Shown in pieces: positions 32,481 to 32,806 of a DNA stretch of 64,000 bases (positions within the stretch are counted from its first letter, which is position 1; each line of letters begins with the position of its first letter). The position numbers were made by a program, and so were the translations under genes. The stretch lies in NCBI RefSeq assembly GCF_003334355.1, contig NZ_QOWP01000002.1. The stretch is one strand, 5' to 3'. This DNA comes from Escherichia coli (GTDB lineage Bacteria; Pseudomonadota; Gammaproteobacteria; Enterobacterales; Enterobacteriaceae). The notes under the pieces were generated by a model, which was not told the DNA's origin, ran no database searches, and saw only the letters and a program-made list of their open reading frames with translations.

Positions 32481-32525
32481 ATTGCCTGATTTGCAGGTTC
32501 GATTCCCTATTCGGAGATAGCACTC

Positions 32526-32726
32526 ATGCAACACGAACTACAGCCTGATTCACTGGTTGATTTGAAATTCATCATGGCCGATACTGGCTTCGGTAAAACC
32601 TTCATCTACGACCGAATTAAGTCCGGCGACCTGCCAAAAGCCAAAGTTATCCACGGTCGAGCAAGATGGTTATATCGTGACCATTGTGAATTCAAAAATA
32701 AGCTCTTAAGCCGCGCCAATGGGTAA
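32526..32726 (+). CDS. torI: TorI, prophage excisionase / TorR inhibitor
   Basis: 66 aa MQHELQPDSLVDLKFIMADTGFGKTFIYDRIKSGDLPKAKVIHGRARWLYRDHCEFKNKLLSRANG, as recalled for K-12 TorI. Confidence 0.9.
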   Translation: MQHELQPDSLVDLKFIMADTGFGKTFIYDRIKSGDLPKAKVIHGRARWLYRDHCEFKNKLLSRANG

Positions 32727-32791
32727 AATAGCGGGTAAAATATTTCTCACATCTAAAAAACACCATTCCAATCAATCCCCTGCCGCTTCAA

Positions 32792-32806
32792 GTAGATGTC
32801 TGCAGG
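32792..32806. other. attR core (CTGCAGGGGACACCA, tRNA 3'-end-like; consistent with argW)
   Basis: Ends in ACCA after acceptor-stem-like GGGGAC; lies between torI and dsdC where phage genes give way to backbone. Confidence 0.55.

Follow-up and report, generated by a model that had tools for sequence, protein, structure and literature searches.

The window analysed here, a 64,000-nucleotide stretch of Escherichia coli DNA, contains the right end (attR) of a P22-like prophage with a recombination module of the KplE1/HK620/Sf6 type at argW (Table 1). At this end torI, the P arm and a 16-bp att core follow one another, after which comes host DNA beside dsdC; dsdX also lies downstream of torI. Homology of the window with phages HK022 and 434 stops at about 32484-32488, and the Shine-Dalgarno sequence of torI lies in a conserved CGGAGAT block that comes 4-6 nt after the 11-nt box with which much of this analysis is concerned. 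The two direct repeats at the end of torI are likely IntS arm-type sites of the P arm; the arm-type sites of IntS in the P' arm have a TAAA motif in common (PMC2951348). Two more terminator-like hairpins stand in tandem (32229-32250 and 32261-32280, + strand) between a 93-aa ORF (31930-32211) and a 55-aa ORF (32300-32467); with the one at 32457-32483, they bring the terminator-like sites upstream of torI to three within 260 bp. On the other side of torI, a 49-aa ORF (32719-32868, + strand) runs from the torI stop region across the P arm and the att core into the bacterial DNA, and its counterparts are annotated as hkaB in HK620 and gene 17 in Sf6. Integration would alter the C-terminus of this ORF, and it may not be a real gene.

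Table 1. Features at the attR end of the prophage and in the adjoining host DNA
Feature	Position	Strand	Basis or remark
Intrinsic terminator that ends the upstream early-left gene; stem-loop AAGCCGCCTGATGGCGGTTT plus T run	32457..32483	+	Common to HK022, 434 and Stx phages
16-nt exact copy of argW positions 46-61	32491..32506	+	Sequence match
11-nt box GTTCGATTCCC, the portion of the 16-mer kept across genera	32497..32507	+	About 29 nt before the xis ATG
Shine-Dalgarno sequence of torI, GGAG	32513..32516	+	Read from the sequence; conserved in relatives
torI, recombination directionality factor (RDF, excisionase), 66 aa	32526..32726	+	100% identical to HK620 HkaC and Sf6 gp18
Two direct repeats GGGTAAAA	32721-32728, 32733-32740	+	Same repeats in HK620
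GATGTC, putative core-type half-site C, left of the crossover region	32795..32800	+	Sequence symmetry alone
attR core CTGCAGGGGACACCAT, same as the argW 3' end	32800..32815	+	Exact match; matches the published KplE1 core
Putative 7-bp overlap TGCAGGG	32801-32807	+	Sequence symmetry
Bacterial DNA right of attR	32816..32909	+	Identical to the empty-site argW-dsdC spacer
dsdC, host gene flanking the argW integration site	32910..33851	-	ORF

The 16-mer upstream of torI, TTGCAGGTTCGATTCC, which occurs once within the window, matches argW exactly. It begins with the final two bases of the variable loop, runs through the T-stem 5' strand and the T loop, and ends two bases into the T-stem 3' strand; the rest of that 3' strand is absent after it (CCCTA, not CCTGC), so that the T arm is incomplete. 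Neither ARAGORN nor Rfam found a tRNA gene in the window, and the same empty searches led us to reject a hidden tRNA gene or pseudogene at the 16-mer. The att core, also an exact match to argW and also without a second copy in the window, is the sequence given as the core of KplE1 by Panis et al. (2010; PMC2951348). With no tRNA gene and a single att core in the window, argW and attL should lie beyond its left edge; the matching layout, with argW and intS at the attL end, is visible in another strain (L112), and the window's prophage extends past the left end.

The unoccupied argW of an E. coli empty site (L006) reads ...GGCTAATTGCAGGTTCGATTCCTGCAGGGGACACCAtccttgtg..., the gene ending in ...GGCTAATTGCAGGTTCGATTCCTGCAGGGGACACCA and being followed by tccttgtgtttatccc. 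Measured against this sequence, the two segments tile the final 31 nt of argW plus one downstream base. In argW they abut with a 1-nt overlap, and in the window they are 293 bp apart (32507-32799), with torI inside the gap. The DNA to the right of the core is the bacterial dsdC side of that site. The tRNA homology upstream of torI is real and non-random: none of 2000 shuffled versions of the upstream segment equalled its alignment to argW, and we put at roughly 1e-7 the probability that an exact 16-mer of precisely the tRNA stretch next to the core would turn up by chance in the same orientation and no more than about 300 bp away. An earlier, sequence-only reading of this DNA had assigned the 16-mer to argW, had seen tRNA homology on both sides of torI (32491-32506 and the core), and had supposed that the two segments, if joined, would form a contiguous 3' part of the tRNA, and on the first two points it was right. 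It had put the second segment at 32792-32806, however, which is 8 nt too far left; the segment exists, CTGCAGGGGACACCA(T) at 32800-32814(15), within the core at 32800-32815.

The same arrangement occurs well beyond this chromosome. In the circular genomes of HK620 and Sf6 and in KplE1 of K-12, the 16-mer stands 20 nt before the torI homologue and the same core follows about 290 bp on, so that 16-mer, torI and core are arranged in KplE1 just as they are here. In UTI89, which carries the CUS-3 prophage, the 16-mer likewise precedes torI by 20 nt, and the downstream core has one G missing. Over the stretch from the 16-mer through torI to the core, many further E. coli phages are 96-98% identical to the window. 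Given its presence in HK620, Sf6, KplE1 and UTI89, the arrangement is carried by the phage and is not the product of events in this chromosome.

How the 16-mer relates to the crossover region can be approached through the symmetry of the core, which in the relatives compared has the form GRTGYM-TGCAGGG-GACACC and in Erwinia phage EhrS_49 is a perfect inverted repeat, GGTGTC TGCAGGG GACACC. A 7-bp overlap, TGCAGGG, with an integrase core-type half-site on either side would account for this symmetry. The left half-site in argW would then be the T loop (TTCGATTCC), and the 16-mer would correspond to the part of attB directly left of the overlap, that is, to the 'B' side, a putative target of the core-binding domain of IntS. 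In the E. coli upstream copy the tRNA homology ends at TTCC, the predicted left cleavage point; in three relatives (L096, L157 and L268) the tRNA match is 2 nt longer (TG), and the junction there is not exactly at that point. Many relatives have as their own left half-site an imperfect T-loop copy, ATTCGATGTA joined to TGCAGGG, and thus carry T-loop-like DNA at two places, which makes the upstream box an extra, better-kept copy and not a displaced half. The sequence-only reading had also offered an unusual attP with xis embedded in the att homology; the layout that it described is correct, but the notion of a split tRNA end is misleading, as the upstream box is an additional copy. Beyond the box the sequence reads CTATTCG GAGATAG, a poor match to the partner half-site GACACCA. 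Similarity of the 5'UTR after TTCC to the remainder of the tRNA, TGCAGGGGACACCAT, was no better than that of shuffles in 9 lineages, and a decayed full B-O copy was rejected on these alignments.

The part of the 16-mer that has been conserved became apparent when 191 loci of the TorI family were pooled into 75 distinct upstream sequences. GTTCGATTYCC is exact in 43 of these and has one mismatch in 7 more (50/75 together); in 3 it has decayed and in 22 it is absent. The computed distance from box start to ATG is 28-30 nt in 30 of the 43 sequences with an exact box, and 20 nt in 12, probably because the script placed the start codon differently in the latter. The box is found in Escherichia, Salmonella, Citrobacter, Leclercia, Phytobacter, Pantoea and Erwinia, with Xis identity to TorI down to 36%, and in distant relatives it lies 4-6 nt before the xis Shine-Dalgarno sequence. 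For example, it is present in prophages of Citrobacter, Leclercia, Phytobacter and Pantoea (Xis 40-85% identical to TorI), in the Salmonella phages Emek and g341c (about 49%; AAGTTCGATTCCC) and in Erwinia phage phiEt88 (36%; TAGGTTCGATTCCC). Erwinia phage Midgardsormr38 (88%; CAGGTTCGATTCCCgtCAGGTTCGATTCCC) has two copies, a tandem duplicate with a 16-nt period upstream of the excisionase gene (L004 2484-2515). When IMG/VR was scanned for the box with GGAGAT after it, at least 120 matches came back. A TorI-family xis follows in about 110 of the 120 matches listed; the others listed are mostly not upstream of any xis, and those inspected resemble genuine tRNA 3' ends.

Conservation within this segment is uneven. 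The T-stem 5'-strand bases to the left of GTTCG vary by lineage (GCAGG, CCAGG, TCAG, CAAG, CCTG, CTAGG, GCCGG), unlike GTTCGATTCC, which is invariant between lineages. In phiEt88, Midgardsormr38 and four further relatives (L096, L107, L215 and L268), 10-12 nt of the box are intact between flanks that can no longer be recognised on either side. All family members with an identifiable attachment site have an argW-type core (TGCAGGG...), and thus a single type of target tRNA with which the box could covary. The box is nonetheless dispensable, being absent from 22 of the 75 upstream sequences and decayed in 3; a clean 25-26-nt indel removes it from otherwise similar contexts in L104, L187 and L191. 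In L187, L191, L193 and L195-L197 from IMG/VR and in L104 from Enterobacter, the terminator is joined straight to the xis Shine-Dalgarno sequence, with box-less joints that read ..TTATTGCC or ..TTTACGCC followed directly by TGGAGAT... These are natural deletion variants, short of just the 25-26 nt in which other lineages have the box, and the stretch that has no counterpart in the L187/L191 type is the 26-nt segment TGATTTGCAGGTTCGATTCCCTATTC.

To the left of the box the lineages have nothing in common, with two different terminators in E. coli and another in Citrobacter and Leclercia. A P22-type xis truncated to its 5' end lies here in K-12, E69 and Emek-like phages, and the first 21 residues of this remnant (MESHSLTLDEACAFLKIS...) match P22 Xis at 90%. 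The remnant spans about 18-21 codons (L199 335-375 in KplE1 of K-12, L088 1701-1757 in Emek, and L093 ~2380-2450), and at its position the window has an HK022-like small ORF and a terminator instead. The unrelated left flanks indicate that the box marks the left edge of a torI-attP-intS cassette, and the truncated xis indicates that in P22-like phages this cassette took the place of a P22-type xis-int-attP module, the two being joined within the former xis. MAFFT placed TGGATTCGCACAGG of P22 xis against the box; the idea that the box arose from P22-type xis coding sequence was rejected, as local alignment to P22 xis is not significant over the box, unlike the alignments of box-bearing segments to argW (p <= 0.005).

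Taken at the level of sequence comparison, the reading that we favour, tentatively and with somewhat less than even confidence, is that the phage captured a copy of the argW T arm and has kept the box as a modulatory cis-acting site for torI, with IntS or TorI as its likeliest ligands. An old recombination would have joined the bacterial side of attL or attB to phage DNA just upstream of the ribosome-binding site of xis, so that homology ends at the predicted left cleavage point or no more than 2-3 nt from it. Since then the 11-nt box would have stayed at a constant distance from the start of torI, probably under selection; it is the intact boxes amid diverged flanks, the fixed position and the tandem duplicate that argue for retention. 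IntS, through core-type binding, or TorI, through sites with a GTTCG core, might then bind the box and damp torI expression. As excision has been obtained in vitro from a 135-bp attR whose left end falls inside the 3' end of torI, and hence without the 16-mer (PMC3509656), the box is not needed for strand exchange in that direction, and it would not be a required component of the reaction. IntS is constitutive at a low level in lysogens, and RDF expression has been proposed as the main control on excision (PMC2951348).

As to IntS, the box corresponds to the predicted B half-site, yet no convincing inverted partner follows it, and a lone half-site would bind integrase weakly. The TorI sites on attL have GTTCG, GATCG or GTCCG cores (PMC2951348), and from the published coordinates and spacings we infer that they are 8-mers. 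AGGTTCGA in the box agrees at 6 of 8 positions with site I4, which by its published position should read TGGTTCGC. Erwinia phage phiEt88 keeps the box, although in its P' arm the repeats that occupy the RDF-site positions are of a type other than GTTCG, which argues against a TorI operator there. On the minus strand of torI codons 3-5 (32531-32538), TAGTTCGT comes near the consensus deduced for the TorI 8-mer, inverted relative to the box; this match is probably due to chance, since it is not conserved in Erwinia or Klebsiella relatives.

Alternatively, the box may be a neutral relic, a boundary sequence left by the recombination that made or moved the torI-attP-intS cassette, which looks conserved through repeated exchange of the cassette together with its 5'UTR. 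The box is, after all, the left limit of similarity between lineages, the Sf6 annotators' own term for the region is 'boundary sequence', and several phage contigs that look intact have lost the box through decay or deletion; nor is it necessary for excision in vitro (PMC3509656). In addition, two relatives have near-identical 5'UTRs although their Xis proteins are 85% (L095) and 45% (L102) identical to TorI, so mosaic exchange explains part of the apparent conservation. This exchange and the repeated loss of the box make the relic a serious rival, if on the whole an unlikely one. A neutral 11-mer is not expected to outlast a divergence that has taken Xis to 36% identity, nor to stay intact where both flanks have become unrecognizable, at a fixed position relative to the ATG and, in one lineage, in tandem duplicate.

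It is tempting to go further than modulation and to speculate that the box is a decoy, an attB 'B' half-site placed at the torI ribosome-binding site. Constitutive integrase would bind it and silence torI in the lysogen, possibly bridging to the arm-type repeats downstream and looping out the gene. Were this so, the integrase would set the threshold for excision through a captured piece of a host tRNA gene. We think it improbable.

Similarly slim are the chances that the box is part of pI, a cII-activated promoter that would transcribe xis-attP-int during the establishment of lysogeny, with TTGCCTGATTTGC as its cII box. The GenBank records of HK620 and Sf6 do annotate a putative cII-dependent pI here, and the torI promoter was non-characterised as of 2010 (PMC2951348). 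The first TTGC is polymorphic in E. coli (ATTGCC/ATTACC), however, while Citrobacter and Leclercia relatives have TTCC or TTTC in place of the second, which Emek, phiEt88 and L107 lack altogether despite the box. Sites for cII consist of TTGC repeats with 6-nt spacing, and the repeats here are spaced N5. Our scan found no sigma-70-like promoter, a sigma-70 promoter was rejected on that ground, and the box ends 5 nt before the Shine-Dalgarno sequence, which leaves scant room for a -10 element and a leader. In a relative from Arsenophonus nasoniae (L098, ~2445-2490), lambda-PI-like TTGC repeats, TTGCGTGAGATTTGCGTGTAATTG, stand upstream of xis where the box would be. They resemble the cII-binding region of lambda PI and make a promoter at this position plausible for the TorI-type family.

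An effect at the RNA level, in which UUCC of the box pairs with GGAG of the Shine-Dalgarno sequence and lowers translation of torI from read-through transcripts, seems very improbable. Minimum-free-energy folds of several homologues do pair part of the box with the Shine-Dalgarno region, but the stems have merely 4-5 bp, their partners differ between lineages, the z-scores of the folds are not significant (-1.7 to +0.2), and such pairing would leave the conservation of GTTCGA unexplained. A conserved RNA structure was rejected, as the folds gave only this weak and variable pairing.

The sequence-only reading had suggested sequential or tandem integration at the tRNA site, and although argW is a known insertion hotspot (PMC9659370), a scar of such events in this chromosome is almost certainly the wrong explanation, since the identical arrangement inside the free phages HK620 and Sf6, and in unrelated hosts, refutes it, no copy of the core stands beside the upstream 16-mer, and the junction expected from recombination of the two 16-mers occurs in none of 5,426 complete E. 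coli genomes.

That last result also bears on a published annotation. The GenBank record of phage CUS-3 (CP000711) labels the same 16-mer 'attL core' and 'attR core' at its two ends (L001 3241-3256 and L002 1-16), which implies recombination between the 16-mer of argW and the one upstream of torI. This was rejected, as the predicted product, argW joined directly to torI, was found in 0 of the 5,426 genomes. UTI89 (L109 2340-2670) is the same as the right end of CUS-3 over the 857 nt compared, and the CUS-3 record stops 20 nt before the position of torI. As torI and the core follow the 16-mer in UTI89, the 16-mer is very probably not the crossover site of CUS-3; a candidate for that site is CTGCAGGG(G)ACACCAT. 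At the left end of CUS-3, TTGCAGGTTCGATTCC and TGCAGGGGACACCAT are followed by a P' arm and an integrase N-terminus the same as those of HK620. The UTI89 core beside dsdC is CTGCAGGGACACCAT, and its lost G is probably the reason that the other repeat was mistaken for the core. The ends of the CUS-3 record were thus apparently set at the 16-mer repeat instead of the true core, with the consequence that the excisionase gene torI was omitted. To judge by its sequence, the imperfect core repeat of UTI89 may also impair excision of that prophage.

Set beside the KplE1 (CPS-53)/HK620/Sf6 module at argW (attL-intS ... torI-attR), the window shows no structural difference and is an ordinary member of the group: TorI is identical, and the core, the P-arm repeats, the dsdC flank and the position of the 16-mer are the same. 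What is new is the recognition of the upstream 16-mer as a copy of the argW T arm that is conserved across genera and that two database annotations read otherwise. In the literature searched we found no mention of the 16-mer, of its identity with the T arm or of its conservation across genera, though a published footprint may exist there.

Several RDFs double as transcriptional regulators, including Cox of P2, Apl of 186 and Vis of P4, and TorI itself represses PintS. Like the TorI sites I3-I5 at PintS (PMC2951348), the box places a GTTCG-type RDF motif beside the start of a recombination gene. Unlike those sites, which are phased direct repeats, it offers a single candidate motif in E. coli (two in Midgardsormr38), and its conserved part runs 3' (ATTCCC) past a TorI 8-mer. 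The timing of TorI is thought to be the main control on excision, and a conserved, tRNA-derived box would be a concrete and easily mutated candidate for such control, for which natural box-deletion variants already exist for comparison.

In an ordinary tRNA-targeting attP the tRNA 3' end is present once, as an unbroken copy that extends from the crossover to the gene's last base, and the core here likewise restores argW at attL. Here, however, the phage also carries a piece of the tRNA from 5' of the crossover, which is unneeded for rebuilding the gene and which lies 293 bp off, on the far side of the RDF gene. This is a clear case of a phage that has held on to the 'wrong' side of attB, of relevance to the assembly and exchange of attP sites and integration cassettes.
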